The position numbers and the translations under genes were made by a program. From a virus: a DNA stretch of 64,000 bases. The notes under the pieces were generated by a model. The model was not told the DNA's origin, did no database searches, and saw only the letters and a list, made by a program, of their open reading frames with translations. Location of the stretch: IMG/VR virus record IMGVR_UViG_3300042396_000723, positions 32,185-96,184 of that record. One strand, given 5' to 3'. Below are positions 1-13,987 of this stretch, one piece after another; positions within the stretch are counted from its first letter, which is position 1; each line of letters starts with the position of its first letter.

Positions 1-29
1 TAACTCCTATTATAGTACAAATCAAACCC

Positions 30-497
30 TCAATATCTCCGCCTTAAATATTCTGCCAATAATAACGCCTCTGCCCTCCCGTGATGTTTTTCGAGTTTAA
101 GATTGTTAGTTTCACCTGGAAACATCTGCAACGCCATCACCCTTGACGCTTTCTTATCTTTTCCTATTAGGCTGTAGTGCTTTTTCCATGCCTGGGGAGT
201 AACAAACTCCATCGGGATTCCTAGCGTTGCAATAATCCCAAGCCAAATCCCAAAACCCATCCCAAAGTTAAAAGTAGAAGATACCCCTTGCTTGGGCATT
301 GCATGAACATTCTCAATAATTAGGTGAGTATTGATGGTGATCATTTCCTTCAGTCCAGATGCCATTAATGTCGGGTTGGGGCGTATCTTTCCACTAATCT
401 TAATCACTGGACAGTCGAGAAATTTAACCTCACCATTAGAAATCCTACACACTGCCCCCGTCGCTCCGGGGTCAATTCCGATAAATGTTTTAGTCAT
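30..497 (-). CDS. RuvC-like Holliday junction resolvase (phage type)
   Basis: 155 aa ORF with N-terminal FIGIDPGATGA motif typical of RuvC/RNase H-fold resolvases; last gene of the minus-strand early block. Confidence 0.6.
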   Translation of the reverse strand: MTKTFIGIDPGATGAVCRISNGEVKFLDCPVIKISGKIRPNPTLMASGLKEMITINTHLIIENVHAMPKQGVSSTFNFGMGFGIWLGIIATLGIPMEFVTPQAWKKHYSLIGKDKKASRVMALQMFPGETNNLKLEKHHGRAEALLLAEYLRRRY

Positions 498-810
498 TAT
501 CCGTTGTTGTTTGTAAATAGTTGATAACAGATGGGCTATAGTCAGATATTAAAATTCTTTCAATTGCCCAAGAGAAGTTGTATTTATCAATTTTTTCACC
601 AAGTCTTCTGCTTAGAATTTTAAATATTATTCTGATTTTATCGCCAATATAAGCAGATCCATAATTTAGATTTTTGGCAATCTCAGGATAAGTATTGTCG
701 TTTAATATTCCCTCGAGAATCTTTCTAGTCAAGCTATCAAGATGTTTTCCGGTCTCGGAAAATACCAAACTATCAACCAACCAGATATATTCTAACTGTT
801 CCCTAGTCAC
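490..810 (-). CDS. hypothetical protein, possible HTH DNA-binding protein
   Basis: 106 aa ORF in operon context; central segment LTRKILEGILNDNTYPEIAKNL resembles a helix-turn-helix. Assignment by eye only. Confidence 0.35.
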   Translation of the reverse strand: MTREQLEYIWLVDSLVFSETGKHLDSLTRKILEGILNDNTYPEIAKNLNYGSAYIGDKIRIIFKILSRRLGEKIDKYNFSWAIERILISDYSPSVINYLQTTTDND

Positions 811-1135
811 CTATAAAATCTCCCTCCGCATGGTAGATCCCATTATGAATTTTAAAACCTTCAATATTCTCGGTTTCAATATCCGAAAAACTTACCCGTT
901 CACTAACCATCCAGATTAGTAATTTTTCTAAAGTGTCAAAAGCTGGAAGGTGTGGCAGTTCAAGCCTTAATCTATCGGGTGTTCCAAAAGCACCTTTAAA
1001 GTGAGTGCTGAATTTAAAGATAGAATAATGGCGATCGCTTACCCCTCTTGATATTTTTTCCACTTCATCGAGTAGGCATCCTAAGTTTTCCATCCTAAGT
1101 TTTCCATCCTTTCTTAGCACTGTTGGCATCCGCAA
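803..1135 (-). CDS. hypothetical protein
   Basis: 110 aa ORF in co-oriented gene string; true start may be the internal Met near 1093 because the upstream ORF ends at 1095. Confidence 0.3.
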   Translation of the reverse strand: MRMPTVLRKDGKLRMENLGCLLDEVEKISRGVSDRHYSIFKFSTHFKGAFGTPDRLRLELPHLPAFDTLEKLLIWMVSERVSFSDIETENIEGFKIHNGIYHAEGDFIGD

Positions 1136-1370
1136 AAGCTATATGATCTCGCGTTATTTGCCACTCGTAACGAGGTCTTAGTCCCTCTCCAATCCTAACA
1201 CAATCCGAGTCTGTATCAGTCAGAGGAGTCACACCATTCTGATATTTGAACAGGGTCTTAGTCACCCAATTGACATCGGTTAATAATTGATTCCCGCCGC
1301 GTTTTCTGGCAGTGGTAACAACTAACTCGGCAATCTCTGGATAATTTGATTTAACTTTTGACTTTTTCAT
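1095..1370 (-). CDS. hypothetical protein
   Basis: 91 aa ORF tightly packed between neighbours on the same strand. Confidence 0.3.
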   Translation of the reverse strand: MKKSKVKSNYPEIAELVVTTARKRGGNQLLTDVNWVTKTLFKYQNGVTPLTDTDSDCVRIGEGLRPRYEWQITRDHIAFADANSAKKGWKT

Positions 1371-1700
1371 TTAAAATTCTTGATTGTTGTCTATGGTTTT
1401 CTTGAACTCTGAACCAACGGGAGCTAAGTTTTCTCGCCAGCTTAACCATCGGGTTTGTTGGTTTAGTTTGGCGGCGTTATAGTCTTCTAGTGTGATGTTC
1501 CAATCCTCAACAGGAGCAAACTCTAAACCAAGATCAAGAATGGTTTTGACAGCCCCTTCACGGGGGTATTTGGCTTTAGGGTTTGTCGTCCGGTGATAGA
1601 GTGTCATCAAAATAAAGTCTTTGTTTTTGGGGATGGGATTGGGTTCTGGGATTAACAGGATTTGACTGTAGACTGATTCGACTACTTCTGGATATTGCAT
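1371..1700 (-). CDS. hypothetical protein
   Basis: 109 aa ORF abutting the upstream gene start (1370/1371). Confidence 0.35.
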   Translation of the reverse strand: MQYPEVVESVYSQILLIPEPNPIPKNKDFILMTLYHRTTNPKAKYPREGAVKTILDLGLEFAPVEDWNITLEDYNAAKLNQQTRWLSWRENLAPVGSEFKKTIDNNQEF

Positions 1701-1707
1701 GAGGTTA

Positions 1708-2475
1708 TTAAGCTCTTGACGGTATCTTGTTAGTGTTGTCAGATGGAACTATTGAGGTAATACTTGAATCCCCATAATTATTCCACTGAACTATATTTGT
1801 CGCCTGCTTCCAGAGTTGTTGCACTCGGACTTTGTGAGGTAAAAATTCTTCGCTACAAAACTTTCCGAAGTAATCTATATCCCCATCATAACAATCAGTA
1901 ATTAAATCCCTGGGATATTCAAAATCATAAATCCCGTAAATATTGTTAAAGTTTGCATCGGAATGTTTACCAGATCCCTCCCACAAACCAAATTGACCCC
2001 GAAACCACCCTCGACTTATATCTTCTCTCTTTTGGAATTGTTTACGTCTTTGTATCTCGTATTCGTAACCGTCAATCTCGCTACAGTCTTCCTGTTCATC
2101 AGGAGCGTAAAGCATCCCTATTGCTGTTTCCGAGTCAGGATCATAATGTGATGATATCCCGTTATCAAGCAAAGAAATCCCAACTAAAAGAATAAGCCCT
2201 TTGCAATTACAGTTTTCTATATTCTCCTTAATCTTCCGAACAGTTGCATCGTAATCATGGAACGGATAAACGGGTTTAACCTCAACAAATATCAATTCTT
2301 GTCTCCCTACTATCACAAAGTCAGGTATCCATCCATCAAAATCGCAAGGTTCATATTCCCATTTCCAATTAAGTAAATCAAAGAAAGCCGCCCACTTAGC
2401 TTCTAATCTTGACCGGAATTGAATCCCATTATATCGAGTGGGTTTGTTTTTGATGGTGTAGTCAAATCCTTTCAT
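1708..2475 (-). CDS. putative PD-(D/E)XK-like nuclease domain protein
   Basis: 255 aa; N-terminal FRSRLEAKWAAFFD followed by PDFVIVG...ELIFVEVKP, reminiscent of D...E-x-K restriction-endonuclease-fold motifs. Motif-level only. Confidence 0.4.
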   Translation of the reverse strand: MKGFDYTIKNKPTRYNGIQFRSRLEAKWAAFFDLLNWKWEYEPCDFDGWIPDFVIVGRQELIFVEVKPVYPFHDYDATVRKIKENIENCNCKGLILLVGISLLDNGISSHYDPDSETAIGMLYAPDEQEDCSEIDGYEYEIQRRKQFQKREDISRGWFRGQFGLWEGSGKHSDANFNNIYGIYDFEYPRDLITDCYDGDIDYFGKFCSEEFLPHKVRVQQLWKQATNIVQWNNYGDSSITSIVPSDNTNKIPSRA

Positions 2476-2511
2476 GTTTTCCTCTTATTTGCTAATGTTT
2501 GCAATTCAAAA

Positions 2512-3132
2512 TTACCAACTCGGATTACCGCCATTAACGGCATCCGTCATGTATTTAGTTCTACGATGCCAACCCGACTTAAACACGGTTTGAGAAGGTC
2601 TACTGGTATAAATTGAGGTGTAATAACTATCTTGAGACTTGAGATAGTTTAACGCCTGTTCCTGCGGTGTTGACCCTGAGATATCCCACTTTTTACCACT
2701 ATTAACATAACTATTCATAATAGCTAAATTAAGCGGTTTCTGGGCTTTATCTGCACCTGAAGCTATCCAGTAGTCGGTGTGATATATCTTTATTGCTTGG
2801 GGTAAAGTTATTGAGGAAACGTTTAACCCGTGCCGTTTGGCTACACTTTCAATAATACCATACTTGGTTTTCCCACCGCCATCGGCAGGGTGATCCGACC
2901 AACCTCCTTCTACCTTCAAAATGTGACTTATAGCCCATGCAAAACCCTCGTCATTTATACCAGCTTGACTAACAGCTTTCTTAATCTCTTCAGGGGCTTG
3001 TGCTTTGGAAATATCACCGGAAACATTACCCGATGGATTAGCACCCGTTACTGATTGAATTGCGGGGGATTGTAATAAATTGATAAGTGTAAACCCCGTT
3101 ACCCCTAACATCATTAAGTTATTGAAAATCAT
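2512..3132 (-). CDS. GH108-like lysozyme / peptidoglycan hydrolase with N-terminal hydrophobic anchor
   Basis: 206 aa; motif EGGWSDHPADGGGKTKYGI matches the glycoside hydrolase family 108 signature (EGG...D..D.GG.T..GI); hydrophobic N-terminus. Confidence 0.65.
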   Translation of the reverse strand: MIFNNLMMLGVTGFTLINLLQSPAIQSVTGANPSGNVSGDISKAQAPEEIKKAVSQAGINDEGFAWAISHILKVEGGWSDHPADGGGKTKYGIIESVAKRHGLNVSSITLPQAIKIYHTDYWIASGADKAQKPLNLAIMNSYVNSGKKWDISGSTPQEQALNYLKSQDSYYTSIYTSRPSQTVFKSGWHRRTKYMTDAVNGGNPSW

Positions 3133-3725
3133 TTTTTCGGCTCCATTATTGGGATTACTTTTTTAGGGTCAATATATTTCCCGTTGAGTTTTATTCCTAA
3201 GTGCAGGTGATTTCCGGTTGATGTTCCCGTAGTACCAACTAGAGCTATGGGAGTACCTGCTTTGACCGACTGACCCTTTTGAGCTAAAACTTTCGAGGCG
3301 TGGCAGTATTTGGACAGGTAGCCACCTGAGTGATTGATCTCAACTGCATTGCCACAACCGCCCATGTCACCCGCAAAAGACACCTGACCATCGGCAACGG
3401 CTAAGATGTTTGCACCCCCCGGCGCTGCAAAATCAATCCCGTTGTGCATTTTTTGCCCTCCCGTTACAGGATGCTCTCTCATACCAAACCCAGAAGATAT
3501 TGTGTAAGGGGTTGAATGGGGATAGATAAACTTAGGGGCGTTTTTACCTAACGTAATTGTTTCTGATGTTGTTGTTGATTGGGATTGAGGAACTGAGGTA
3601 GAGGGTGATCCAAACTTAAAAATGCTAAAGCCCACAAGCAAAACAGAAACGAAACACCAGAACCAAACATCATCAAGCTGTTCCTCACAATCCCTTATCC
3701 TCTCCTCCAATTTCCGGTTCAACAT
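3129..3725 (-). CDS. M23 family (LytM-like) peptidoglycan endopeptidase
   Basis: 198 aa; HNGIDFAAP and GTTGTSTGNHLHLG motifs (HxxxD and HxH zinc ligands of M23 peptidases); N-terminal TM segment; start overlaps upstream stop. Confidence 0.8.
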   Translation of the reverse strand: MLNRKLEERIRDCEEQLDDVWFWCFVSVLLVGFSIFKFGSPSTSVPQSQSTTTSETITLGKNAPKFIYPHSTPYTISSGFGMREHPVTGGQKMHNGIDFAAPGGANILAVADGQVSFAGDMGGCGNAVEINHSGGYLSKYCHASKVLAQKGQSVKAGTPIALVGTTGTSTGNHLHLGIKLNGKYIDPKKVIPIMEPKK

Positions 3726-3729
3726 TGCC

Positions 3730-4080
3730 TTATTTTCCCCCCATATCTTGCTTGCCTATTTGTTCTGATTTATCGTTTTTGGGAACGTCAAGGTTGTAGC
3801 GCGATCGCAAGCCACCTAATTTAAACTCGCCACTAAATAGGTTTTTAGCTGTCTCTTTCTTTTCGGGTTTAGTGGAATCGGAAGATTTTTTATCATCGGT
3901 TTTGGGTTCTTCTTTAGGTTTTGCCCAGTCCTCCTTGGGTATCTGCCTAGTTATTTCTGGGATGGTTTTTACCGTTTCGGCTACACCCTTTTTAAACCAC
4001 CAAGGGATTGACTGATTCCAACAAAAGTAAATCAGAAATACCCAACCCAGAACAGATCCAAAATAGAATAAAACTCTCAT
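3730..4080 (-). CDS. membrane protein, Lys/Glu-rich tail (possible lysis accessory)
   Basis: 116 aa; N-terminal hydrophobic helix (VLFYFGSVLGWVFLIYF) then charged region; sits between M23 peptidase and another small TM ORF. Confidence 0.4.
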   Translation of the reverse strand: MRVLFYFGSVLGWVFLIYFCWNQSIPWWFKKGVAETVKTIPEITRQIPKEDWAKPKEEPKTDDKKSSDSTKPEKKETAKNLFSGEFKLGGLRSRYNLDVPKNDKSEQIGKQDMGGK

Positions 4081-4316
4081 TATTTAACATCCTCCAGTGA
4101 TTCAATTGGGGTAATGGTTGAATCGGAATCGTCACCTTGACCGGGGGGAAGTTGACGATTATTTGTGGCATTTATAGACCCGCCGAACCAATAGGTTAAA
4201 GTCCCTACACTTTTCTCGAATAATGTCTTGATAGCGGTTTCAACTGTCATCCCTCTGACTCCAAAAAAGACAAGTAAAGTTAGCGCAGAAACGAAAACAA
4301 TTCTTGAGGGTTTCAT
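4080..4316 (-). CDS. small membrane protein (holin-like candidate)
   Basis: 78 aa; single hydrophobic segment IVFVSALTLLVFFGV; start overlaps the downstream gene. Confidence 0.35.
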   Translation of the reverse strand: MKPSRIVFVSALTLLVFFGVRGMTVETAIKTLFEKSVGTLTYWFGGSINATNNRQLPPGQGDDSDSTITPIESLEDVK

Positions 4317-4328
4317 AAGTAAAGGCTC

Positions 4329-5765
4329 CTATTTATTAATTAAGACTTTGGACTGAGAGGACTGAGATAATTGAGACTCCCATGCGGGTTTGAGGTAATT
4401 CGTGTAACGCTTGTTAGTAGAACGCGGCTCTATTCCTAACTCGCTACAAATTTGTTTTAGGGGTGATGGAATCAAACCGTGGGAATATTTAAAAGCCCGA
4501 AGTTCAAGAGAAGATTTAAACAGGGCAGTATTAACCTGCTCCCACCAATCACTATCCGGGTCGGTTGATTTGGCACTGGCAAAGGTAACGTTAAATCCTG
4601 ATAGGTCAGGAATTGAAACTACTCTTGATTGCCCTTTGATTGTGCAGATAGCGGGTCTTTTCCCTTCCTTGAGCAACCTTTCAGCTATCTCTATTAACCC
4701 CGTTTTCTCCCCTGCTAAATACCGTAACTGCGATTCAGGGATTGATGGGTAGCAGATTATTAATTGAGCTAAATTTTCCAGTGTTGCCAAAGTAAAACCA
4801 CCCTCACCGACGGACGCGGATTGACCCACGGGGATTAACTTAATCTTGTAGCCTCTACCCTGCTTAATGATCTCAATTAGCTTATCGAGCCGGGAATTGG
4901 TTTTGTCTGACTTGTATCGTTCCACGATACTGTCAAATTCTTCGCAGATTAGGCAAATCGGAGTCAGGTCAACTTGAATTTCTGATATCTTTTTGGCTCC
5001 GTTTTTGGCTCCGTCAACACAAGCCTTAATCCGTTTATCTAATTGGGCGTGAACGTGATCAATTAGGCTATCAATCTCGTCATCGGGTTGCTTGATCCAT
5101 TCGGTGTCCAACCCAAACCAATTATTAAGATAACCGTCATTATCGGGCTTTCCATAGTTCGGGTCAGCAATAAACAGTTGACCATCGGGGTTATTCTCAA
5201 GCCATTGACTGATTATCAATCCCAGGAGTTTAGATTTTCCCGACCCCGTGCCACCCGTTAGCCTTTGATGTGGCAACGATAGAAATTCGGATACCCAACC
5301 CGAATCATCTTTGATTGATTGAAACTTAGACTTGATTTCCGGTGGGATAGCGCGGATCAACAGTTGAGATGATTTGGCATAACCTTTTTCTCCAAAGTCC
5401 CCTAGACTATCCAAAGCCTGACCAACTCCCCAAACTGTCCAACTAACTGATTTAGCCAAGGTATCGGGGACGGTGCGGGGTAGATCCTCAAGTTTGACCA
5501 TAGACTCATCCCCTAGTATCAACCCCGCTAAAGCACCAAGGCATCCCACGCCCGCTAAATATAGAAGGATTGAATTATTAACGGGTTTACGCTCAATTAC
5601 CAAAACGCTACCCCATTCTCCTTTCTGAGATTGGTGGGGTGAGATACCTTTTAAATCCTCAATCTGAACAGTCGCAGCGCTGAATAAACCAATGGCTGAA
5701 AATCCTAAACTTGCTGCAACGGCAACCCCCCAATTATCCTTAGTGAAGTTATTTGGTCTTGCCAT
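4329..5765 (-). CDS. membrane-anchored FtsK/SpoIIIE-HerA-like P-loop ATPase
   Basis: Walker A GGTGSGKS and Walker B-like ICLICEEFD; two N-terminal hydrophobic segments; first ATG (complement of 5763-5765) is preceded by AGGAGG. The track ORF extends to 5801 on a TTG. Confidence 0.6.
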   Translation of the reverse strand: MARPNNFTKDNWGVAVAASLGFSAIGLFSAATVQIEDLKGISPHQSQKGEWGSVLVIERKPVNNSILLYLAGVGCLGALAGLILGDESMVKLEDLPRTVPDTLAKSVSWTVWGVGQALDSLGDFGEKGYAKSSQLLIRAIPPEIKSKFQSIKDDSGWVSEFLSLPHQRLTGGTGSGKSKLLGLIISQWLENNPDGQLFIADPNYGKPDNDGYLNNWFGLDTEWIKQPDDEIDSLIDHVHAQLDKRIKACVDGAKNGAKKISEIQVDLTPICLICEEFDSIVERYKSDKTNSRLDKLIEIIKQGRGYKIKLIPVGQSASVGEGGFTLATLENLAQLIICYPSIPESQLRYLAGEKTGLIEIAERLLKEGKRPAICTIKGQSRVVSIPDLSGFNVTFASAKSTDPDSDWWEQVNTALFKSSLELRAFKYSHGLIPSPLKQICSELGIEPRSTNKRYTNYLKPAWESQLSQSSQSKVLINK

Positions 5766-6555
5766 CTTTAGCCTCCTTTTCTGCCAATTGTTTAGCCTCA
5801 AGTTCTAATTGCTTTTGAAGGGCCTCAGTCCGCTTCTGCTGCTCGTAGGTTAAAGCTCTAAGTGTCATGGCAACCTCAGAGAACCGACGGACATCACTCG
5901 CCAAAACCGAGACATTAACAGAGGTAAACTTTAATTGAATTTGATCTGCCGATGTAGTTTCCCAATGGCGTTTTAGTGCCAAAAGATTTCCCCAAACCTC
6001 AAACAACAAATCAGCCGCTTGCTTCCGTTCTTTAGGTGAACCGTTAAATTCTCCCTCTAGCGTAGCTTTATCAAGTTTGTTAGCCAGAAAGTTGATTTTC
6101 TTAATCAGAAATAACTCAATAGAAATGGGTTTCTTTTCAATCTCAGAACGAGCTTGCAACAGGAATGTTTCTGCTACCGCTTCACTCAAGTTGTTAACTT
6201 GAAAACCTACCTCGTTTAATGACTTATCTAATAGCTCATTTCGTGCCATTTCTAAGTCAGGGGATGGTTGAAATTCTCCAGAATTATCATTAGCTTCGGT
6301 CGAGGTTTCCCCTGTTGGTTCTACCGTCATTTGCTGAACTTCGGCACTTTCAGCTACGGGAACGTTAGGAGCAAACTTCTTGATAATTCCTGATTTATTC
6401 CCGACTAAGGTAATAAAACTACAAACTGCAATAACTGTTAGTAAAACCGCTACTCGTTTTCGTGTTTTATTAGGCTTTCTAGGTTCCCTCTGAGTGGCTT
6501 CTGAATCCCCACTAAAAGCTGGTAAGTCATCACTAGGCTGTAAACTGTCTAACAT
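5749..6555 (-). CDS. membrane-anchored coiled-coil protein
   Basis: 268 aa; one TM helix (VAVLLTVIAVCSFITLV) followed by a long helical, charged C-terminus (QKQLELEAKQLAEKEAK). Confidence 0.4.
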   Translation of the reverse strand: MLDSLQPSDDLPAFSGDSEATQREPRKPNKTRKRVAVLLTVIAVCSFITLVGNKSGIIKKFAPNVPVAESAEVQQMTVEPTGETSTEANDNSGEFQPSPDLEMARNELLDKSLNEVGFQVNNLSEAVAETFLLQARSEIEKKPISIELFLIKKINFLANKLDKATLEGEFNGSPKERKQAADLLFEVWGNLLALKRHWETTSADQIQLKFTSVNVSVLASDVRRFSEVAMTLRALTYEQQKRTEALQKQLELEAKQLAEKEAKDGKTK

Positions 6556-6560
6556 CTATA

Positions 6561-6986
6561 TCAATCTCCCTGTGCATGGTGTGAGGTTTTGATTTTCTGG
6601 GCGTTGGTGTTTGGAGTGGTGTTTTCGGGCGAAAGTACCTTTCCATAGAGTTCAAGGGCTTCAAAGTATTCAGGACTCCCAGGCTGAAGGCAATTCAGGT
6701 GATTCTCGGTTGCCCTTTGGATCAGTTCACCCAACACAAGGTTAAAGTCTGGTTTTGTGTCTGATCTGTTGGGGCTTGTTTCCTTGTTTGATTGGGTGTT
6801 ATTGCGGGTTGTGATAGCCAAGAGTGCAGTAGTTGTGGAACTAGCTATTAATCCGATAAAACCCCCGTATTGACCCATTCTAACCTCTGATATTTCCGGT
6901 TCTAATGTTAGGGATAACAGGACTGAACTAAGACCACCAATCACAGTTCCAACCATGATCGCCTTAACGGGTTCTGGGATTTTCAT
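6561..6986 (-). CDS. membrane protein
   Basis: 141 aa; two hydrophobic helices near the N-terminus. Confidence 0.4.
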   Translation of the reverse strand: MKIPEPVKAIMVGTVIGGLSSVLLSLTLEPEISEVRMGQYGGFIGLIASSTTTALLAITTRNNTQSNKETSPNRSDTKPDFNLVLGELIQRATENHLNCLQPGSPEYFEALELYGKVLSPENTTPNTNAQKIKTSHHAQGD

Positions 6987-7276
6987 ATTGATAGTTTTGG
7001 GATTGTTCCCTGATTCGACTAAAAACTACTTGATTGCTAAATATTAAAAACCCAATAAAGAATGCTGTTAAATAATAAATAGTATTCATTAGAAACAACC
7101 TCCCATTAAAAAGGGCATTACGTTATGTGAGCAGTAAACTCCAAATAGATTAACCAAGTCGATAACGATTCCCACTTAAAACCCTCCCATTAATAATTCT
7201 AATTGTTGACTGATTTCCTTGGGTTGAGGGATTTTTAGGATAACTTCTATTCTCTCAACCCGTGTTTCTAGTTCGT

Positions 7277-7786
7277 TTATTCTCCGAAAAAACTTCTCAC
7301 AGCTAACTGGGATTTTTTTGACTTTCCCACCGCTTCGTTAAGTTGCTGTTCTAAAGCCTCAATTGAGATTTCTTGATCAAAGTCTAAGAGGTTTCCTAAC
7401 TCATCCCCGGACGCTTGATCAATTGCATTCTTGTACTCAGGAATCCCAACTAATAAAGCCTTGGCGGATTCAATTTCATCGTCTGCAATTTCATTTAAGA
7501 AAGCCAATTGTTTTGCTTTTTTAAATAGTTTAGCATCTTCCCGCCCGGAGTTTTGACCCGCAACAACAACGGCTTTAGTGTTAACAATCGCGTTATCCTT
7601 AGCTTTCTTTTGGGTCTTAACAACTGCATCATTGAGTTGATCTGTTGTACTCCCTTTGGTGATAGCTGATTTAGTCTGCTGTTTCGGCTGTTCCGCCTGG
7701 GTTTGGGGTTTCCGTGAGTTCTGATACAACTCGGTAAGTTCCGGTTGAGTGTTGTTGTCGGTAGCTTGTGATTCTTGATAGGACAT
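7277..7786 (-). CDS. hypothetical protein
   Basis: 169 aa ORF; 5' end overlaps ORF 7671-8144, so one of the two starts is probably downstream of the track value. Confidence 0.3.
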   Translation of the reverse strand: MSYQESQATDNNTQPELTELYQNSRKPQTQAEQPKQQTKSAITKGSTTDQLNDAVVKTQKKAKDNAIVNTKAVVVAGQNSGREDAKLFKKAKQLAFLNEIADDEIESAKALLVGIPEYKNAIDQASGDELGNLLDFDQEISIEALEQQLNEAVGKSKKSQLAVRSFFGE

Positions 7787-8144
7787 CGACTTTAAACTCC
7801 TTAAATAGTTGGGTTGTGTTTAGCATTAACATCTTCTGGAAAACTTCTATCTCGATAGATAAACCGTTGTTTAAACAGTGGTGATAGAGGCTTTGGAACT
7901 GATAGTAGGTATGGTGTGGGTATTTGGAACTAACAAAAATATGCAATAGGTACAAGATGTTTAATTCCGCCCAATCAACAGGTTTTCTTGTTATCCCCAA
8001 AACCCCTTTTCTGTCTGCGATTGTCTGGTGGGAAACCTTGAAAATCAACTGAATCTCTTTTGAGGAAAATGGTTCTAAAGCGTTTTCGTCTCTAAGATCT
8101 ATTGTTTTCCTAATTCCCCCTTGCCTCGATCTAAAATCGCCCAT
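7671..8144 (-). CDS. hypothetical protein
   Basis: 157 aa ORF; overlaps 7277-7786 by about 116 nt at its 3' end. Confidence 0.3.
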   Translation of the reverse strand: MGDFRSRQGGIRKTIDLRDENALEPFSSKEIQLIFKVSHQTIADRKGVLGITRKPVDWAELNILYLLHIFVSSKYPHHTYYQFQSLYHHCLNNGLSIEIEVFQKMLMLNTTQLFKEFKVDVLSRITSYRQQHSTGTYRVVSELTETPNPGGTAETAD

Positions 8145-8267
8145 TCATGGCTTCCTATAGTCCTCCGTTCTGGGTTTACTCAGGCTTGATTTAACCTGAT
8201 GTACCAATAGTAAACCCACCTCTAAGGGTGGGCATAGGGGAAAATACATCTGGGGTGGAATTTGCCA

Positions 8268-8471
8268 CTACTGATTATTCTTTTCCTGCCATTCCATAAC
8301 ATAAAGCGTGTGTTTGCAAAATCGTTTCAATACATCTCGGTCAACCCATAAGTCCACAAAGGTATTATCTTGATTAATCGTTGCAATACAGTATTGACCA
8401 TTAAGGTTTTGCCCTAATTTTATTTCCCCTTTTAGGTGATGGACTTCTTGAGAGTGTGAATAATTGTCCAT
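8268..8471 (-). CDS. hypothetical small protein
   Basis: 67 aa ORF; its stop overlaps the upstream ORF start (8471). Confidence 0.3.
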   Translation of the reverse strand: MDNYSHSQEVHHLKGEIKLGQNLNGQYCIATINQDNTFVDLWVDRDVLKRFCKHTLYVMEWQEKNNQ

Positions 8472-8668
8472 TATATTTTTCCCTCTGATTGTGCTAACAA
8501 ACCTAAGTGGCGACGAAATTGAACGTATTGGGGTTTAGGGTCGTAGCCTTTGCGACGGTGATTTTTTACCGTGTCAGGGTCGGCTCCTGTTAACAATGAA
8601 ATTTGGTTGATGGATTTTCCGGTAAGTAAACGAAATTCATCTACAGATAGTTCTTTTTGTGCAAACAT
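8471..8668 (-). CDS. hypothetical small protein
   Basis: 65 aa ORF at the head of a leftward operon, next to the divergent intergenic region 8669-8793. Confidence 0.3.
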   Translation of the reverse strand: MFAQKELSVDEFRLLTGKSINQISLLTGADPDTVKNHRRKGYDPKPQYVQFRRHLGLLAQSEGKI

Positions 8669-8793
8669 TGTAATAGCCTCAACTGGGTTAAAGAATGGGT
8701 TGGGGTGGGGCTGATCGGCTGATATCCGGTCAGCCCCTTTCAGTATTTGTGTTAATGTTATGCTGATTATATGCTAAACGACATAAAAAAACA

Positions 8794-9045
8794 ATGGACA
8801 AAAGGTATAGAATTACGATTAAGATCCCTGCGTGGCATAATAAGCGATTAAGGGAATGGGCAGCACTCAAGGGTGTAGCACCCACAACCTTGGCGGGTAA
8901 CGTATTGCAAGCTCGAATAGAAGCAAACGACGAACAAATTGTGGCGATGTTAAAGTCTCGGTCTGAGGATGAAGGATTAACTATTGAGGAATTTATTAAA
9001 AAGATTGTCAATGATTCAGATGATCAAGAAAAGCCCACTAGGTAG
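8794..9045 (+). CDS. possible ribbon-helix-helix-like small DNA-binding protein
   Basis: 83 aa; the only plus-strand gene in the minus block; N-terminal beta-strand-like YRITIKIP followed by helices (REWAALKGVAPTTLAGNVLQARIE). Fold assignment speculative. Confidence 0.35.
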   Translation: MDKRYRITIKIPAWHNKRLREWAALKGVAPTTLAGNVLQARIEANDEQIVAMLKSRSEDEGLTIEEFIKKIVNDSDDQEKPTR

Positions 9046-9097
9046 AGTGAGCTTCTTTGGAGTTATCGGGAATAAGGGCAGGAGTTGTAAGATTGTT

Positions 9098-9532
9098 TTA
9101 AATAAGACTGTTCAAACTATTTACAATTTCTTCCTTATTGATTTCATCATCTACAAATCTTTTTGCATTGATTGAATCAATTAAAAATTGAAAAGCTCTT
9201 GATTCAGTAAGATACATTGGGATATTTAAAACGTTGTCAAGTTCACCGTTAAATATTTTATTTGCTATTATCACGGCATCCTCAACATTTAGAACGCCAT
9301 CATGCACCAACAATTCCACAATGCCAATTAATCCCATGTAGAATCCAGCTTTTAATAAATCCGAATAATCGGGTTTTACTATTTTGGCTTTTTCGTTAAT
9401 TTCAACCGTAGATTTATGAGCTAAACTGTATTCTAAACAGTATTTGAAATTATCTGGGTTCAATTGTGAGAGTAAAATAACGCCTTTTTCACTCACAAAC
9501 TTTGAGCCAGAATCTAATTCTTTAATGTCCAT
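9098..9532 (-). CDS. hypothetical protein (AT-rich moron candidate)
   Basis: 144 aa ORF in a visibly AT-rich stretch compared with flanking DNA. Confidence 0.35.
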   Translation of the reverse strand: MDIKELDSGSKFVSEKGVILLSQLNPDNFKYCLEYSLAHKSTVEINEKAKIVKPDYSDLLKAGFYMGLIGIVELLVHDGVLNVEDAVIIANKIFNGELDNVLNIPMYLTESRAFQFLIDSINAKRFVDDEINKEEIVNSLNSLI

Positions 9533-9645
9533 TTTGTCTCCATAATGTTTCCTGTGGGATGCCCCTACTCTGACGGGAATCAGAAATAGGGGCTTTTAAT
9601 TTATTTTATCGCCACCATTGTCCGTCGCTGATGAAGTCTTGATCG

Positions 9646-9975
9646 TTAGATAAACAAACTTAACTGACCCTCACTAGCAACCGCTTTACGTTTTGGATTG
9701 TTCCACGATTCCCCCCGACTGTTGACACGGTTTCGCCAGTGGGGATAGGTTCTGAACGGTTGTTTCAGTGCCACAAATTTAGGAATCAGTTTCAATTCCT
9801 CAAGCCAGATTTTGTAAGGACTGTATTCCCTGGCTCCGAATGGGTAGCGGTCGTTGCAATACTTCCGGGCATCCTTAGAGTTGATCTCTTCGCTCAGACA
9901 AGCGCATTGTGCTTCGTACTCGATCAAAGAGTCTGCAATCTTTGAGATTGAACAATCGCGCCAAGACATTTGCAT
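9646..9975 (-). CDS. hypothetical protein
   Basis: 109 aa ORF, co-oriented with neighbours. Confidence 0.3.
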   Translation of the reverse strand: MQMSWRDCSISKIADSLIEYEAQCACLSEEINSKDARKYCNDRYPFGAREYSPYKIWLEELKLIPKFVALKQPFRTYPHWRNRVNSRGESWNNPKRKAVASEGQLSLFI

Positions 9976-10106
9976 TTCAATTCCCTCCAGAATAATAATT
10001 CAACCAATACCAAAACGTTGTCAGTTGCCACTCGTGGGGTTTTTTACGACTGACAATATTGCGCCATAGTCTGAAGTTGGCTCGAAAGTCACGCAGGCCA
10101 GTCCAA

Positions 10107-10388
10107 TCAATCATGTTTCCTCCTGTGTTTTTTGGGGTTTAGCGATCGCAAATAATCTGCAATCGCTCGGCAATGGTTTGGATCATTAACATCTTCATGA
10201 CACTGAATCCAATGTTTAATCAGTGTCAAATTGTAGCCATACCCCGCCCGATTCCCCCCAGGGCGTTTGTAATAATGAATATTTTCGATCCATTTTTTGT
10301 GAGAGTGTTTAACGGAATCGGGATTTTTTAATCCCAGGAGTTTGACCGCTTCATGTTTGGAGCCAAATTCGTAGGCTGTGGCAATCAT
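10107..10388 (-). CDS. hypothetical protein
   Basis: 93 aa ORF; its start overlaps the stop of the upstream gene (10385-10388). Confidence 0.3.
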   Translation of the reverse strand: MIATAYEFGSKHEAVKLLGLKNPDSVKHSHKKWIENIHYYKRPGGNRAGYGYNLTLIKHWIQCHEDVNDPNHCRAIADYLRSLNPKKHRRKHD

Positions 10389-10774
10389 AAACCTTGAATC
10401 CTTAACTGAATAGGAACCTCGTTAATCTCCAACAATCCTTTTTTAGAAAGTTTTGCCAATTCAACCTGAACATCTTGCACGTCGAATTTAATTTCTTTCT
10501 CCTTCCCCAATGGAGTTACGCCAGAACAGTCAAGTATTGTGATTAGATTTTCTGGTGTAACTTCTAAATCTTTATTGCAGCCATAAAGAAGACGAAGCAT
10601 ATAGAGAATGTAGACAGATTTGTTTATTCCCCCTGCTATTAAATCCGATTGCAAATTATAAACAGATTGGACTAATTTACCCTGTTTATTCATCACTGTC
10701 CCCATATTTTTCTCTGGGGCTTTTAATTGAATGACGTTATCAATTTCAGTGGTTTCAATTTGTTCAACTTGCAT
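10385..10774 (-). CDS. hypothetical protein
   Basis: 129 aa ORF in a tightly packed operon. Confidence 0.35.
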   Translation of the reverse strand: MQVEQIETTEIDNVIQLKAPEKNMGTVMNKQGKLVQSVYNLQSDLIAGGINKSVYILYMLRLLYGCNKDLEVTPENLITILDCSGVTPLGKEKEIKFDVQDVQVELAKLSKKGLLEINEVPIQLRIQGL

Positions 10775-10783
10775 AATCTTCTC

Positions 10784-11077
10784 CTATCTAGTAAAACTGA
10801 TTTGAGCATCCCAGAGGGTTTGAAGCCACTGGTTTTGCGTGGGCATTAAGTGTTGATTTTTTTCTCTTAACGGATGCGGGAACATCCTCCGAGCTAGTTT
10901 AGATGCTGCGATCGCATCTTTTTTAGAATGAAAATACCCAGGGAAACGTCGCCCTGATGCCAAGTGAGTAACCCCCCAGTAATCGTCGTCAATCCGATGT
11001 ACAGCGATCCACTTTCTGATAGTTGCCTTTACTTTCCATCGCCCATAAATAGTATGGGTTACAATCGTTTTTCTCAT
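10784..11077 (-). CDS. hypothetical protein
   Basis: 97 aa ORF; 4-nt overlap with the upstream ORF at 11074-11077. Confidence 0.3.
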   Translation of the reverse strand: MRKTIVTHTIYGRWKVKATIRKWIAVHRIDDDYWGVTHLASGRRFPGYFHSKKDAIAASKLARRMFPHPLREKNQHLMPTQNQWLQTLWDAQISFTR

Positions 11078-11265
11078 GACTCAACCCTTGTTCTTGTGAT
11101 AACTGAAACGGGAACCCCGTCCCAATCTTCCTGGATATAGTATCTGCCAGTGCCAGATTTATTCATTTCCTCGCACTTTTTCCGAGCTTGATTAAATCTC
11201 GGATAAGACGCGATAATAACGCCTTTTCCTAGTTCCCAAATCGCGTAGCCTTTCTGTTTGCTCAT
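11074..11265 (-). CDS. hypothetical small protein
   Basis: 63 aa ORF. Confidence 0.3.
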   Translation of the reverse strand: MSKQKGYAIWELGKGVIIASYPRFNQARKKCEEMNKSGTGRYYIQEDWDGVPVSVITRTRVES

Positions 11266-11357
11266 CTTTCTGTCTTAATGTTAATTTGGCATATTCAATA
11301 GCAAAAAATATGCCCCCTTTATACTGTTTTTCCCTGTATGGATTGGGGGCTTAAACT

Positions 11358-11513
11358 TTAAGCTCGTTTTAATCTCGAACCATATTGAACGTGATGGTAT
11401 AGAGTCTCAACAGTTTTGAACCGATGCCCACAGTCTGGACATTTCCGCTCTCGGTACTCTTTCCTCGTGCCGACTACACAAGTCTTTTCAGCGTTGCATT
11501 TAGGACATTTCAT
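11358..11513 (-). CDS. small zinc-ribbon protein (not in ORF track)
   Basis: My own translation gives 51 aa MKCPKCNAEKTCVVGTRKEYRERKCPDCGHRFKTVETLYHHVQYGSRLKRA with paired CxxC motifs; GGAGGAGG precedes the ATG; its ATG overlaps the stop of a 32-codon upstream ORF (TAATG). Confidence 0.35.
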   Translation of the reverse strand: MKCPKCNAEKTCVVGTRKEYRERKCPDCGHRFKTVETLYHHVQYGSRLKRA

Positions 11514-11714
11514 TACAACACCTCCTCCTTCTTGTTGTAAAAGTCTTTTAGTTCGCTAATGGCTTTAATGAGAAGATCAATTTCTGGAGAATAACGCTTC
11601 GTACTTGACATCTGGTTTCTGGTTAATGGGTTAAAAAAGGGGTGTAGCTAGAGGGCTTTCCACCCCAGGAGATTCTTACTTACACAAACGTTTAAATGAT
11701 TAAACGATTTTTGT

Positions 11715-11870
11715 CTAAACATCACCTCCTTCATCTTCGGCTTCAATATCAATTGAAGCATCCGCTTTTTCTAGCAGCCATTCGATAAATTCTTGGTAGA
11801 TTTCTTCTTTGGTCAAAGAAGGATAATCTATTTCTTCTGTGTCACCACAAGCTCTAAATATTGCTTTCAT
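11715..11870 (-). CDS. small acidic protein (not in ORF track)
   Basis: My own translation gives 51 aa MKAIFRACGDTEEIDYPSLTKEEIYQEFIEWLLEKADASIDIEAEDEGGDV; its ATG overlaps the stop of ORF 11867-12163 (ATGA). Confidence 0.25.
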   Translation of the reverse strand: MKAIFRACGDTEEIDYPSLTKEEIYQEFIEWLLEKADASIDIEAEDEGGDV

Positions 11871-12163
11871 GATTCTCCTTTCTGCTTGATATAATCCCCA
11901 AGCGATAAAACATAAACTTCTGTCCCTTGTTCAATTGTTCCTTCGCTCCATTCAGGCTTGGGGATTCCCTTAGAGATTCCTAACAAAGTAACTGTTACCG
12001 AGGGGACGCTGTTGCCGTATCCGTTGGTAAAGCGGATATGGGTTAGTGGCTTATGAAATCGGGATTGATAGTAAGGTTTAATCTCCCGATATTCCTCTAG
12101 CTTCACGCCGGAGGCTATCATGTCAAACCACTTTTTCTTGATGGCTAGAGTTAAGGTTTTCAT
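11867..12163 (-). CDS. possible ASCH/PUA-like domain protein
   Basis: 98 aa; N-terminus LTLAIKKKWFDMIASGVKLEEYRE resembles ASCH-domain openings. Weak, motif-level. Confidence 0.3.
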   Translation of the reverse strand: MKTLTLAIKKKWFDMIASGVKLEEYREIKPYYQSRFHKPLTHIRFTNGYGNSVPSVTVTLLGISKGIPKPEWSEGTIEQGTEVYVLSLGDYIKQKGES

Positions 12164-12195
12164 AACCCTTTTCCTGCTCTCATAAGTTCATTGAT

Positions 12196-12405: not shown

Positions 12406-12484
12406 AATTCTCTTATTTATGCTGGGTTTTGAATTGGGGGAATTTCACCCCCGGAGTTAATCAGTCAAGAACCAAGGCAATTAT

Positions 12485-13168: not shown

Positions 13169-13261
13169 TTTGTTTTAGCTTGGTTTCTGTTAGTTTAATT
13201 AGGCTTAATCGCACCGCCCCAACGCCTCACAATCGCACTATGAAGCGTAAGGGAAAAACGA

Positions 13262-13912: not shown

Positions 13913-13987
13913 TTTTTTTGCCTTAAATAATTAATGCTTTGTTGAACCTTTTAGGGACTTGTTCAGGTCTCGGTTGTTCTATGGGTA

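Follow-up and report, generated by a model that had tools for sequence, protein, structure and literature searches.

What would a phage do with a motor ATPase that is anchored in the membrane and encoded among small membrane proteins and cell-wall hydrolases? This question is raised by a stretch of 64,000 nucleotides (the window) from IMG/VR virus record IMGVR_UViG_3300042396_000723, which is a relative of Planktothrix phage PaV-LD. An earlier note on this DNA had called such a membrane translocase unusual for a tailed phage, and database searches bear this out: when IMG/VR was scanned with a pattern built on the aligned ATPases, all contigs that came up were PaV-LD-like, and PaV-LD was the only match in a tblastn search of the phage collection. 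The note had missed the kinship with PaV-LD, the published endopeptidase and holin among the neighbours of the ATPase (PMC9096620) and the sharing of the cassette with plasmids. The cassette seems to be a borrowed machine for the passage of DNA through the cell envelope, beyond a lysis kit of the virus.

On the minus strand, positions 6986 to 2512 hold seven translationally coupled genes (window ORF list) with spacings of 5, -17, 12, -1, 4 and -4 nt. The genes overlap or abut, which indicates one operon. N-terminal hydrophobic segments are present in all proteins of the cassette (Kyte-Doolittle hydropathy), and the order of the seven genes is unchanged in 16 phage relatives. The operon sits amid DNA-metabolism genes, not 3' of the tail genes. 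TerL, portal and prohead protease are encoded separately in the window, which rules out the ATPase as packaging motor; PaV-LD likewise has its own terminase and portal. Besides the ATPase, the large NTPases recognised in the window are TerL and DnaB. Reading the sequence together with the ORF list also revealed an unannotated ORF of 41 amino acids with one transmembrane (TM) segment (MNTIYYLTAFFIGFLIFSNQ..., 6964 to 7089, minus strand), which has a GGGAGG ribosome-binding site upstream and overlaps the start of the next gene. Its amino-acid conservation is 70-100% in 15 of the 16 phage relatives (tblastn), the most divergent of them (L038) giving no significant tblastn match. The ORF is unannotated in PaV-LD as well, where the tblastn alignment ends after 34 residues. 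It is a probable eighth member of the cassette.

The ATPase gene (5765 to 4329, minus strand) encodes 478 amino acids and is the equivalent of PaV-LD ORF127L. Its ATG at 5765 is preceded by AAAAGGAGG; an alternative TTG start at 5801 would yield 490 amino acids, the length in relatives being 473-478. The features from which the note had deduced a membrane-anchored FtsK/HerA-like ATPase are all present on the minus strand, namely the Walker A motif GGTGSGKS (residues 171-178, nt 5232-5255), the Walker B motif LICEEFD (residues 272-278, nt 4932-4952) and two N-terminal TM helices. Hydropathy peaks at residues 13-31 (1.75) and 66-84 (2.36), and the AlphaFold model (pLDDT 76) predicts helices at 9-31 and 65-84 (TM1, nt 5673-5741; TM2, nt 5514-5573) with a periplasmic beta-hairpin between them. 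They are followed by a single RecA-like domain (nt 4611-5342), which includes the motif DPNYGKP seen in the family alignment (nt 5145-5165), and in the AlphaFold layout by an orphan four-helix bundle as C-terminal domain (nt 4335-4559).

Judged by profile, predicted fold and motifs, the protein belongs to the FtsK-HerA superfamily, with FtsK and EccC as its nearest relatives. It combines a Walker A of the form GxxGxGK[ST], a Walker B with the catalytic Glu and a RecA-like core. When the family profile was compared with the PDB, EccC (2.9e-12) and EssC (1.6e-11) came first, followed by HerA (4e-10), FtsK (2.8e-7) and the coupling protein TcpA (1.7e-4). The AlphaFold model was matched by Foldseek best to the FtsK motor on double-stranded DNA (6t8g, 1.3e-5), then to HerA (2e-5), EccC (5.8e-5), VirB4 (1.8e-4) and TcpA (1.7e-3). 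The closest proteins outside the family carry FtsK_alpha and FtsK_SpoIIIE domains, and the PaV-LD copy of the gene is already annotated as FtsK/SpoIIIE. The window protein stays under the Pfam cut-off for DUF87 (PF01935; 18 bits versus 23.2) and does not match PF01580. The family is small (about 100 clusters), and only 9 and 11 of 59 members have weak or sub-threshold matches to FtsK_SpoIIIE (PF01580) and DUF87-HerA (PF01935), respectively. All 59 members have G176, K177, D201 and E276, and at least 90% of them have Q315; instead of the Walker B Asp, the phage lineage and several of the plasmid members have Glu. With a dN/dS of 0.047 against PaV-LD, the lowest of the cassette genes, the ATPase is under purifying selection. 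Thus superfamily and membrane topology were correctly predicted, and a soluble helicase- or recombinase-type reading does not apply; of the other clades considered in the note, VirD4/TraG is unlikely and the packaging ATPases are ruled out. Short-repeat arrays like clt or KOPS/SRS (at least 4 copies of an 8-mer within 300 bp) were found neither in positions 1-16000 of the window nor at the PaV-LD locus, which counts against the transfer of DNA favoured below.

Upstream of the ATPase, two membrane proteins are encoded. The 141-aa protein (6986 to 6561, minus strand; PaV-LD ORF129L equivalent) has one strong and one weaker TM segment by hydropathy, and a jackhmmer search connects it with the 2-TM ORF that occupies the corresponding place in plasmid loci (1.6e-41 for L046, 1.1e-30 for L045, 1e-9 to 1e-15 in Oscillatoria/Laspinema, 5e-5 for L017). 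The gene of the 268-aa bitopic protein (6555 to 5749, minus strand; ORF128L equivalent) runs 17 nt into the start of the ATPase gene; the protein comprises a basic stretch, a TM segment at residues 35-53 and about 215 C-terminal residues that are probably periplasmic and helical or coiled-coil. PDB and Pfam searches gave no match for it; it is homologous to the plasmid bitopic protein whose gene overlaps the ATPase start there (phmmer 7e-7 for L017; hhalign of phage versus plasmid, probability 86.5%, E 4.6e-6). Downstream of the ATPase follows a small bitopic protein of 78 amino acids with one strong N-terminal hydrophobic segment (4316 to 4080, minus strand; ORF125L equivalent), which is tied to small TM ORFs of the plasmids by position and topology only, hhalign being not significant. 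The next gene (4080 to 3730, minus strand) encodes a 116-aa bitopic protein with a Lys/Glu/Pro-rich tail, 69% identical to PaV-LD ORF124L, the published 'holin'. ORF124 localises to the membrane and is weakly bacteriostatic, and in E. coli and Synechocystis it and ORF123 act synergistically (PMC9096620).

The published 'endopeptidase', PaV-LD ORF123L, is 83% identical to the 198-aa M23 (LytM-type) peptidoglycan endopeptidase of the window (3725 to 3129, minus strand), which is anchored by a TM segment at residues 20-38. The M23 assignment is based on Pfam (4.2e-32; 110.7 bits versus a cut-off of 28.7), NCBIfam (MepM/ShyA-like, 1e-29) and a PHROG endolysin family (7e-38), and both zinc motifs are intact, HxxxD as HNGID (residue 94, nt 3432-3446) and HxH as HLH (residue 173, nt 3201-3209). 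Its gene overlaps by 4 nt that of a 206-aa GH108 N-acetylmuramidase-type hydrolase (3132 to 2512, minus strand; ORF122L equivalent), which matches Pfam with 3.4e-18 (66.4 bits versus a cut-off of 21.2) and a PHROG endolysin family with 6e-40; the PG_binding_3 part is below threshold (17.9 versus 24.6). The GH108 motif EGG...D.GG.T..GI is intact as EGGWSDHPADGGGKTKYGI at residues 75-93 (nt 2854-2910). The flanking membrane and hydrolase genes with N-terminal anchors described in the note are thus there, except that the segment of the GH108 enzyme is weakly hydrophobic (1.52) and therefore signal- or SAR-like rather than an anchor. In the PaV-LD genome, including the region after the tail genes, the M23 and GH108 enzymes were the only peptidoglycan hydrolases found.

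The synteny of the cassette with plasmid elements is a new result of our analysis. In filamentous cyanobacteria, about ten extrachromosomal elements that are divergent from one another have the same succession of a 2-TM protein, a bitopic partner, the ATPase, small TM proteins and an M23 and/or GH108 hydrolase with an anchor. Two complete plasmids of Oscillatoria acuminata encode a 2-TM ORF, a bitopic protein of 364 amino acids, the ATPase, proteins of 144 and 83 amino acids and a TM-anchored M23-GH108 fusion, adjoining ParM and a D5-type primase. Their ATPase is 26% identical to the window ATPase over the full length (E 1e-44), and the window GH108 and the C-terminal half of the fusion share 33% identity. 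The same order was found in Laspinema, Thermoleptolyngbya, Elainellaceae, Spirulina and several unassigned contigs, with ATPase identities of 20-40%. Wherever a lineage offers 3 kb or more of sequence beyond the cassette ATPase and its small partners, an M23 and/or GH108 hydrolase is encoded there; hydrolase and ATPase are conserved together on plasmids and plasmid-like contigs, and the module is not a phage-specific one that does without a motor ATPase. The domain matches and the synteny seen elsewhere go far beyond chance. Among the 72,556 plasmids of PLSDB, the cassette is present in Oscillatoria only. Every cyanobacterial host that has a name is a filamentous form without heterocysts (Planktothrix, Oscillatoria/Laspinema, Thermoleptolyngbya, Elainellaceae, Spirulina and Kastovskya); for many family members the host name was taken from a metagenome bin, in one case a bin with the label Actinomycetota, and most of the roughly 100 clusters carry no host name. 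In several plasmid loci strings of 60-80-aa helical proteins are encoded just upstream of the cassette, and in one plasmid-like locus (L021) ten GTCGCA motifs lie right behind the ATPase stop, which we regard as a lead only.

On both complete Oscillatoria plasmids no VirB4, other T4SS protein or virion gene is annotated, and a relaxase (MOBP) is annotated on only one of the two. No VirB4 was seen in the flanks of the other cassette loci, and VirB4 and relaxase are absent from the scanned window ORFs and from the PaV-LD annotation. Since T4SS genes are not annotated, the cassette, if it is a transfer system, would be TraB-like and not T4SS-like. In Streptomyces, TraB and small Spd membrane proteins constitute a DNA-translocation complex for spreading across septa (PMC4447253, PMC5365140). 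The reading that we favour, tentatively and just short of calling it probable, is that the cassette is a plasmid-derived envelope translocation apparatus, most likely for a TraB/Spd-like transfer of DNA between the cells of a filament, with hydrolases that also lyse the cell in the phage. The PaV-LD lineage probably acquired it from plasmid-like elements of filamentous cyanobacteria.

Such an apparatus would be built around the FtsK-HerA-type ATPase, tethered to the cytoplasmic membrane by its two N-terminal helices and presumably a ring-shaped motor. Produced along with it would be the bitopic partner, whose long helical domain would lie in the periplasm, as well as several small proteins with one or two TM segments, and two periplasm-facing hydrolases would complete the set, M23 acting on the peptide cross-links and GH108 on the glycan strands. 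The motor would drive the double-stranded DNA of the element, plasmid or phage genome, out via the membrane complex, the hydrolases would open the wall locally, and the DNA would cross the septum into the adjacent cell of the trichome. At the septum an outer-membrane component would be unneeded, and the cassette encodes none. In the phage, the hydrolases and the small pore-forming protein may, when abundant, also lyse the cell, and this dual use would account for the published endopeptidase and holin phenotypes. Since no other hydrolase was found in PaV-LD and ORF123 and ORF124 are lytic upon heterologous expression, lysis may even be the main job of the cassette in the phage. Of the functions suggested in the note, a non-canonical lysis or secretion module and the movement of DNA across the envelope come closest to the evidence.

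It might also be possible that the operon is simply a phage lysis cassette, in which an ORF124-like holin acts with M23 and GH108 as membrane-tethered or SAR-type endolysins and the ATPase and remaining membrane proteins are accessory, for example in the timing or regulation of lysis, or unrelated passengers. Muralytic enzymes with intact motifs, both matching PHROG endolysin families, are encoded beside a small membrane protein, PaV-LD has no other annotated or detected lysin, and its ORF123 and ORF124 inhibit growth and damage membranes synergistically in E. coli and Synechocystis, with their TM segments required (PMC9096620). However, over-expression of the Streptomyces transfer protein SpdB2 is likewise toxic (PMC4447253), and plasmids without annotated virion genes carry the cassette with its hydrolase and have nothing to release. 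The ATPase is also the most constrained gene and is translationally coupled to its neighbours, and the operon is not located behind the tail genes. We know of no ATPase in canonical holin-endolysin-spanin systems, and we regard lysis as the sole function as unlikely. The best profile relatives of the ATPase in the PDB, EccC and EssC, are protein-secreting ATPases that also rank near the top by fold, which counts against a DNA pump. They would suit a minimal T7SS-like system in which an EssC/EccC-type ATPase works with membrane partners and a wall hydrolase like EssH of S. aureus, or a holin/endolysin-assisted export of small element-encoded proteins as by TtsA (GH108) of Salmonella or ChiWX of Serratia. 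EssC has two N-terminal TM helices as well, GH108 enzymes serve toxin secretion in Salmonella, and the small helical proteins upstream of several plasmid cassettes could be the cargo. However, most of these small proteins are devoid of a WxG motif, and the cassette and 12 flanking ORFs scanned in the window gave no WXG100/EsxA-type Pfam match. The protein has a single ATPase domain where three or four would be expected, and it lacks an FHA domain; the hydrolases bear their own export signals, and a position in the plasmid backbone near replication and partition genes better suits propagation of the element. Protein secretion is thus rather improbable in our view.

There is little probability that the motor acts as a type IV coupling protein of the TcpA-like FtsK type feeding a host-encoded T4SS, with the hydrolase as a wall opener like VirB1, TcpG or CwlT. 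Two N-terminal TM helices and a nucleotide-binding domain are the topology of coupling proteins, the matches to TcpA by profile and Foldseek point weakly in this direction, and one partial phage copy is named 'type IV secretory system conjugative DNA transfer family protein' by NCBI. Bifunctional hydrolases with peptidase and muramidase domains are typical of Gram-positive conjugation systems, and one Oscillatoria plasmid has the MOBP relaxase; the second plasmid, the PaV-LD annotation and the scanned window ORFs, however, revealed none. Among the 59 family members no T4SS-DNA_transf or TrwB-type Pfam match was obtained, only one having a marginal match to the TraG P-loop (0.006), and TrwB-type structures are not among the top PDB matches by profile or Foldseek. 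VirB4, the one ubiquitous T4SS protein (PMC4027160), is annotated neither on the two complete plasmids nor in the flanks of the other loci. Superinfection exclusion, which the note had also suggested, or anti-phage or anti-plasmid defence at the membrane is very improbable. HerA/FtsK-type ATPases are part of several defence systems, toxin-antitoxin and Abi genes occur in plasmid neighbourhoods, and PADLOC reported a weak match of the ATPase to mad8 (1.9e-7, 29 bits); however, apart from such weak generic matches of the ATPases, the seven window proteins and three plasmid counterparts scanned match no defence model, and nothing points to exclusion. The ATPase is constantly accompanied by wall hydrolases and bitopic membrane proteins instead of nucleases or sirtuins, and the cassette belongs to the conserved backbone beside par and rep genes, not to variable islands.

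The proposed apparatus shares features with several known systems. As in lysis cassettes of phages, two genes are direct orthologues (83% and 69%) of the lytic ORF123 and ORF124 of PaV-LD (PMC9096620); however, canonical holin-endolysin cassettes are not known to include an ATPase and are not conserved modules of plasmid backbones, whereas the 'lysis' genes here make up the distal end of an operon of seven to eight genes that is shared with plasmids. EccC/EssC systems likewise have two N-terminal membrane helices, bitopic partners and a wall hydrolase (S. aureus), but their ATPases carry N-terminal FHA/DUF domains and three to four ATPase domains in tandem and handle WXG100-type substrates; the cassette ATPase has a single such domain, and the cassette and the neighbouring ORFs scanned yielded no WXG100 gene. 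In the 'transjugation' of Thermus thermophilus, the element-encoded TdtA (ICEth1), a membrane-associating FtsK-HerA-type ATPase without a recognisable DNA-binding domain, is required for the donor to push out its DNA, with no T4SS involved (PMC5365140). Unlike the cassette ATPase, TdtA is HerA-like, has the nuclease NurA and a restriction enzyme as partners and is devoid of TM helices and wall hydrolases, and uptake depends on the competence of the recipient. The Tcp system of Clostridium perfringens pCW3 (also ICEBs1 with ConQ/CwlT) has an FtsK-like ATPase with two N-terminal TM helices (TcpA), a bitopic partner of about 300 amino acids (TcpC), small membrane proteins (TcpD/E) and a membrane-anchored two-domain wall hydrolase with peptidase and glycosidase (the bifunctional peptidoglycan hydrolase TcpG). 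The resemblance is looser than that to TraB/Spd. Tcp and ICEBs1 are true T4SSs with VirB4 (TcpF/ConE), VirB6 (TcpH/ConG) and relaxase, none of which is in the cassette, and their hydrolase domains come from other families.

TraB itself differs from the cassette ATPase in being larger, in matching Pfam FtsK_SpoIIIE and in reading 8-bp clt repeats with a C-terminal winged helix, whereas the cassette ATPase stays below the Pfam thresholds and is predicted to end in the orphan helical bundle, and no repeat array was seen in positions 1-16000 of the window or at the PaV-LD locus. The hosts of TraB/Spd are Gram-positive, unlike those of the cassette, and to our knowledge Streptomyces plasmids do not encode M23 or GH108 hydrolases. 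Like the TraB/Spd systems of pSVH1 and pIJ101 (PMC4447253), however, the cassette has a single membrane-associated FtsK-type ATPase and no VirB4, and it is a tight operon with several small, poorly conserved membrane proteins in a plasmid backbone beside rep genes. Both are found in multicellular, septate hosts, and a relaxase is not required. In addition, Streptomyces SpdB2 forms pores and promotes spheroplasting (PMC4447253, PMC5365140), a holin-like phenotype that resembles that of the PaV-LD 'holin'.

The ORF list places seven genes of the cassette on the minus strand. They encode proteins of 141 aa (6986..6561) and 268 aa (6555..5749), the ATPase of 478 aa (5765..4329), proteins of 78 aa (4316..4080) and 116 aa (4080..3730), an M23 peptidase (3725..3129; Pfam E 4e-32, HxxxD and HxH intact) and a GH108 hydrolase (3132..2512; Pfam E 3e-18, EGG...D.GG.T..GI motif present). 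Since the spacings between these ORFs are only 5, -17, 12, -1, 4 and -4 nt, the seven genes are translationally coupled and form one operon. The ATPase most likely starts with the ATG at 5765, which is preceded by AAAAGGAGG, and its 478 aa are in line with relatives of 473-478 aa. By hydropathy, the four small and medium-sized proteins and the M23 peptidase each have a single strong TM segment at the N terminus, the ATPase has two TM segments, and the GH108 hydrolase has a weak segment that is signal- or SAR-like. The earlier note had described a membrane-anchored ATPase flanked by membrane proteins and by M23 and GH108 hydrolases, and this observation was confirmed, since hydropathy, hydrolase motifs and Pfam E-values agree.

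An extra ORF of 41 aa (7089..6964, minus strand) overlaps the start of the first cassette gene; it contains one hydrophobic segment and has GGGAGG as its ribosome-binding site. It is conserved at 70-100% on the amino acid level in 15 of the 16 phage relatives and is missing from the PaV-LD annotation. The intergenic region upstream of the cassette (6987-7276) contains TTAATGGGAGG twice on the minus strand, 84 nt apart; one copy is the ribosome-binding site of the 41-aa ORF and the other lies just before a tiny GTG ORF. This region with its repeat pair could serve as the operon's promoter, operator or leader. Scans for promoters and terminators there yielded counts no higher than expected from shuffled sequence, and Rfam and tRNA scans of the window gave no matches. 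Directly downstream of the cassette a 255-aa ORF is located (1708-2475, minus strand), which among the 16 phage relatives is present only in the identical IMG/VR contig L024. The N-terminal part of its product hits PHROG 21138 (4e-18) and, at a weak level, an endonuclease family; the ORF is possibly a mobile nuclease gene that was inserted there.

Searches with the ATPase as a single sequence gave weak matches: Pfam DUF87/HerA with 18 bits, which is under the cut-off, PHROG "FtsK/SpoIIIE-like" with 3e-10 and EccC5 in the PDB with 0.04. A word-indexed protein search retrieved almost exclusively close phage relatives. phmmer, run exhaustively against 1.84 billion cluster representatives, found only 100 relatives at E < 1e-3, showing that the family is small and distinct; nearly all of them are 380-520 aa long, the exceptions being some fragments and a few longer proteins. 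Among 59 aligned members no variation was observed at G176/K177 (Walker A), D201, E276 (Walker B) and P386, and Q315 was conserved in at least 90%. D201 is part of a family-specific D-x-N-Y-G-K-P motif, and a conserved C-terminal motif reads DPDxxWW...SPLK...RY...KPxWE. The family profile matched EccC (2.9e-12), EssC, HerA (4e-10), FtsK (2.8e-7) and the clostridial coupling protein TcpA (1.7e-4) in the PDB, and the closest proteins outside the family in a large protein database carry FtsK_alpha and FtsK_SpoIIIE domains. The AlphaFold model (pLDDT 76) has TM1 (9-31), a beta-hairpin (34-61) and TM2 (65-84); a long helix and a disordered linker come next, then the RecA-like domain (142-385) and finally a C-terminal domain of four helices (403-477), which is an orphan. 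The top Foldseek match of the model is the FtsK motor on dsDNA (1.3e-5), followed by HerA, EccC, VirB4, the STIV packaging ATPase and TcpA. The profile, domain and fold evidence therefore upholds the proposed FtsK/HerA-like assignment: the ATPase is membrane-anchored, belongs to the FtsK-HerA superfamily, lies nearest to the FtsK/EccC branch and is too divergent for membership in a Pfam family. A VirD4/TrwB-type coupling protein was ruled out by a Pfam scan of the family.

The ATPase is 81% identical to PaV-LD ORF127L ("FtsK/SpoIIIE protein"), and every neighbour is syntenic. L024 is 100% identical over eight query genes, the seven cassette genes and the downstream 255-aa ORF. A pattern scan of viruses, derived from the ATPase alignment, found PaV-LD-like contigs only (15 loci, 79-100% identity), and a viral scan with the divergent family member P0059 gave no matches. 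All seven cassette genes are kept in unchanged order in 16 of 16 phage relatives, with dN/dS values against PaV-LD of 0.047 for the ATPase, 0.08 for the 268-aa partner and about 0.1 for the hydrolases. Identities of single genes vary independently among the relatives, thus the cassette is a recombination mosaic. The window also encodes a terminase large subunit, a portal, a prohead protease and a DnaB helicase. Given the terminase, portal and prohead protease, it belongs to a phage of the head-tail type that encodes a packaging motor of its own, and this motor is distinct from the FtsK-like protein. The packaging ATPase of a membrane-containing tailless virus was ruled out as well, both by these genes and by the occurrence of the ATPase on plasmids.

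Several smaller differences were observed within the phage lineage. ORF126L (~400 bp, one TM segment) is located between the ATPase gene and the 78-aa gene in PaV-LD and most relatives (L001 8297-8723, L025/L026 and others) and is missing from the window (4316-4329) and from L024. PaV-LD has a 23-nt tandem duplication (AATAAATAGGAGTATCTGTTGTG twice) directly past the ATPase stop. In the window, an exact 12-nt tandem duplication at 4990-5013 (TTTTTGGCTCCG twice) encodes GAKNGAKK (ATPase residues 252-259), which lies in a surface stretch that is variable and in which PaV-LD has one diverged copy. An exact 14-nt tandem duplication (CATCCTAAGTTTTC twice) is found at 1077-1104, where the ORFs 803..1135 and 1095..1370 overlap. 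Homologues of PaV-LD nblA, encoding a phycobilisome degradation protein (23538-23696, minus strand, 94% identical), and of its thymidine kinase gene (22948-23535, minus strand, 92% identical) are present; the PaV-LD genes for integrase (ORF018R), PAPS reductase, ABC transporter, kinase and phosphatase are unmatched within the 64-kb window.

The main new result is that the cassette is not phage-specific. A tblastn search of 72,556 plasmids gave matches in two plasmids only, both from Oscillatoria acuminata PCC 6304. Their ATPase is 26% identical to that of the window over the full length, including the TM region and the C-terminal domain (E 1e-44). The gene order in O. acuminata is a 95-aa ORF with two TM segments, a 364-aa bitopic protein overlapping the ATPase start, the ATPase, proteins of 144 aa and 83 aa with one TM segment each and a 375-aa TM-anchored M23-GH108 fusion; in the phage, the M23 and GH108 domains are encoded in the same order by two overlapping genes. 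On both plasmids the cassette is located directly behind a ParM gene and close to a D5/DUF5906 primase-helicase gene. No VirB4-type T4SS or virion genes are annotated on either plasmid, and one of the two has a relaxase. The arrangement was also found in Laspinema genomes, in a Tara contig (L017, next to KfrA and RHH genes), in Thermoleptolyngbya (L019) and its relative L041, in Spirulina (L047), in an 85-kb Elainellaceae contig (L045) and in the loci L021, L043, L046, L048 and L049; the ATPases of these loci are merely 20-40% identical. Two metagenome scans for a wider cassette context gave no matches. Every lineage with at least ~3 kb of downstream sequence has a TM-anchored M23 and/or GH108 protein downstream, with one to four ORFs, mostly for small TM proteins, between ATPase and hydrolase.

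Sequence comparison supports homology beyond ATPase and hydrolases for two partners, the bitopic and the 2-TM protein. Phage and plasmid bitopic proteins are linked by phmmer (7e-7) and hhalign (86.5%, E 4.6e-6), and the 2-TM protein of the phage is linked to the plasmid loci by jackhmmer. The 78-aa and 116-aa proteins agree with the small plasmid ORFs in position and topology alone, hhalign and jackhmmer being not significant, and the bitopic partner has no matches in PDB and Pfam. The named cyanobacterial hosts (Planktothrix, Oscillatoria/Laspinema, Thermoleptolyngbya, Elainellaceae, Spirulina and Kastovskya) are all filamentous and non-heterocystous; one metagenome bin with a family member carries an Actinomycetota label.

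In L045 (JBNPEB010000003.1, 7208-21440) the cassette follows a gene for a ParM-like actin, with Baseplate_J and Collar (tail-fibre) genes ~3 kb away, and this contig may be a second, unrelated phage, tailocin or phage-plasmid with the same cassette. The sequence just past the ATPase stop varies: L019, L041 and L002 have terminator-like hairpins, L017 has a short ATTACA(A) repeat in three to four copies, and L021 has ten GTCGCA/TGCGAC copies in both orientations within ~150 nt (5000-5150). The latter array resembles protein-binding repeats such as clt, operators or iterons; apart from the short L017 repeat, the remaining plasmid loci that were inspected have nothing comparable there. The 8-mer TGACGGGT occurs in four to five copies within ~90 nt in L002 (1543-1630), L023 (11552-11638) and L048 (17981-18060), each time within the D5/DUF5906 primase-helicase gene; the cassette-bearing plasmids concerned are unrelated, and the 8-mer forms either an iteron/origin-like array or a conserved coding repeat.

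The M23 peptidase is 83% identical to PaV-LD ORF123 and the 116-aa protein 69% identical to ORF124, which have been named endopeptidase and holin, respectively (PMC9096620). In E. coli or Synechocystis the two proteins inhibited growth and damaged the envelope synergistically, and their TM segments were needed (PMC9096620). Our literature search found nothing published on the ATPase, nor on the operon as a unit. No second lysin or other peptidoglycan hydrolase was found in PaV-LD, neither after the tail genes nor in the annotation, thus the M23/GH108 hydrolases very probably lyse the host in the phage, in line with the published experiments. That they are the sole peptidoglycan hydrolases found there also favours a pure lysis role with the ATPase as an accessory, which we nevertheless consider unlikely. 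Dual use for lysis and transfer is the simplest reconciliation.

For the transfer part, we propose that the cassette would move dsDNA through the septum without a relaxase, spreading plasmids and, in the phage, the genome into adjacent cells. The apparatus, independent of relaxase and T4SS, would be built from one membrane motor of the FtsK type, bitopic partners and M23/GH108 hydrolases that cut the septum. Plasmids and the PaV-LD-lineage phage genome would pass from cell to cell along the trichome inside the shared outer membrane. The cyanobacterial filament has a continuous outer membrane and periplasm, and this continuity together with the filamentous hosts is the reason for proposing septal transfer. 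The cassette encodes no outer-membrane component, which because of the same continuity would be no handicap for transfer to a neighbouring cell. DNA transfer as the function is a tentative reading, with a chance slightly below even, and movement of plasmids and phage genome from cell to cell of the trichome is more doubtful. Against a settled DNA-transfer reading stand the orphan C-terminal domain and the lack of clt-like repeats in the phage, where a repeat search and an 8-mer cluster scan found no clt/KOPS-like repeats. In addition, the best profile matches, EccC and EssC, move proteins, which speaks for protein secretion, in our opinion an improbable function here. A further observation bears on secretion: six to seven acidic, apparently helical proteins of 60-90 aa are encoded right upstream of the cassette in the Thermoleptolyngbya-type elements L019 (2798-4267) and L041 (7604-9094), some of them paralogous between the loci, with no TM segment and no WxG motif. 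The ATPase might also serve as coupling protein for a T4SS supplied in trans, which seems very improbable. Least credible is defence or exclusion, with a PADLOC match that is weak and concerns generic mad8/HerA only.

The individual parts are not new, since the PaV-LD gene was already annotated as FtsK/SpoIIIE and two neighbours have been characterised as lysis proteins. What appears to be new is that the parts form one conserved cassette of seven to eight genes common to a phage and plasmids of filamentous cyanobacteria, and that the ATPase is the founding member of a small, divergent family whose set of partners is fixed. If the cells of a filament do exchange DNA through the cassette, this would be a conjugation-like route, previously unrecognised, in a major phylum of bacteria whose plasmid transfer mechanisms are poorly understood, and a phage would for the first time be seen to spread between cells as naked DNA. 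A bloom-controlling cyanophage would then spread within the trichome without an extracellular step, and infection dynamics, burst size and resistance would be modelled differently for Planktothrix blooms. The 'holin/endolysin' pair of PaV-LD, which has been considered as an algicidal tool, is recast as components of a larger, conserved machinery. Should the substrate prove to be protein, or the job lysis, the cassette is still a compact, uncharacterised FtsK-type system whose components are clear and testable.

An FtsK-type ATPase anchored in the membrane, bitopic membrane partners and periplasm-facing wall hydrolases that are inherited together on plasmid backbones are the signature of a machine moving macromolecules through cytoplasmic membrane and peptidoglycan. 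The parts list is similar to that of type VII secretion and of Gram-positive conjugation loci such as Tcp of pCW3. The cassette is not a T4SS, because no VirB4 was found among the window ORFs scanned or in the annotations of PaV-LD and the two plasmids, and not a T7SS, because the ATPase has a single ATPase domain and no WXG100 genes were found in the cassette or the flanking window ORFs scanned. The parts also resemble the TraB/Spd system of Streptomyces with one FtsK-like motor and small membrane proteins, which transfers dsDNA and spreads it across hyphal septa, and in which SpdB2 forms pores and promotes spheroplasting (PMC4447253; summarised in PMC5365140). The proposed apparatus would thus be a Gram-negative analogue of TraB/Spd spreading in Streptomyces.
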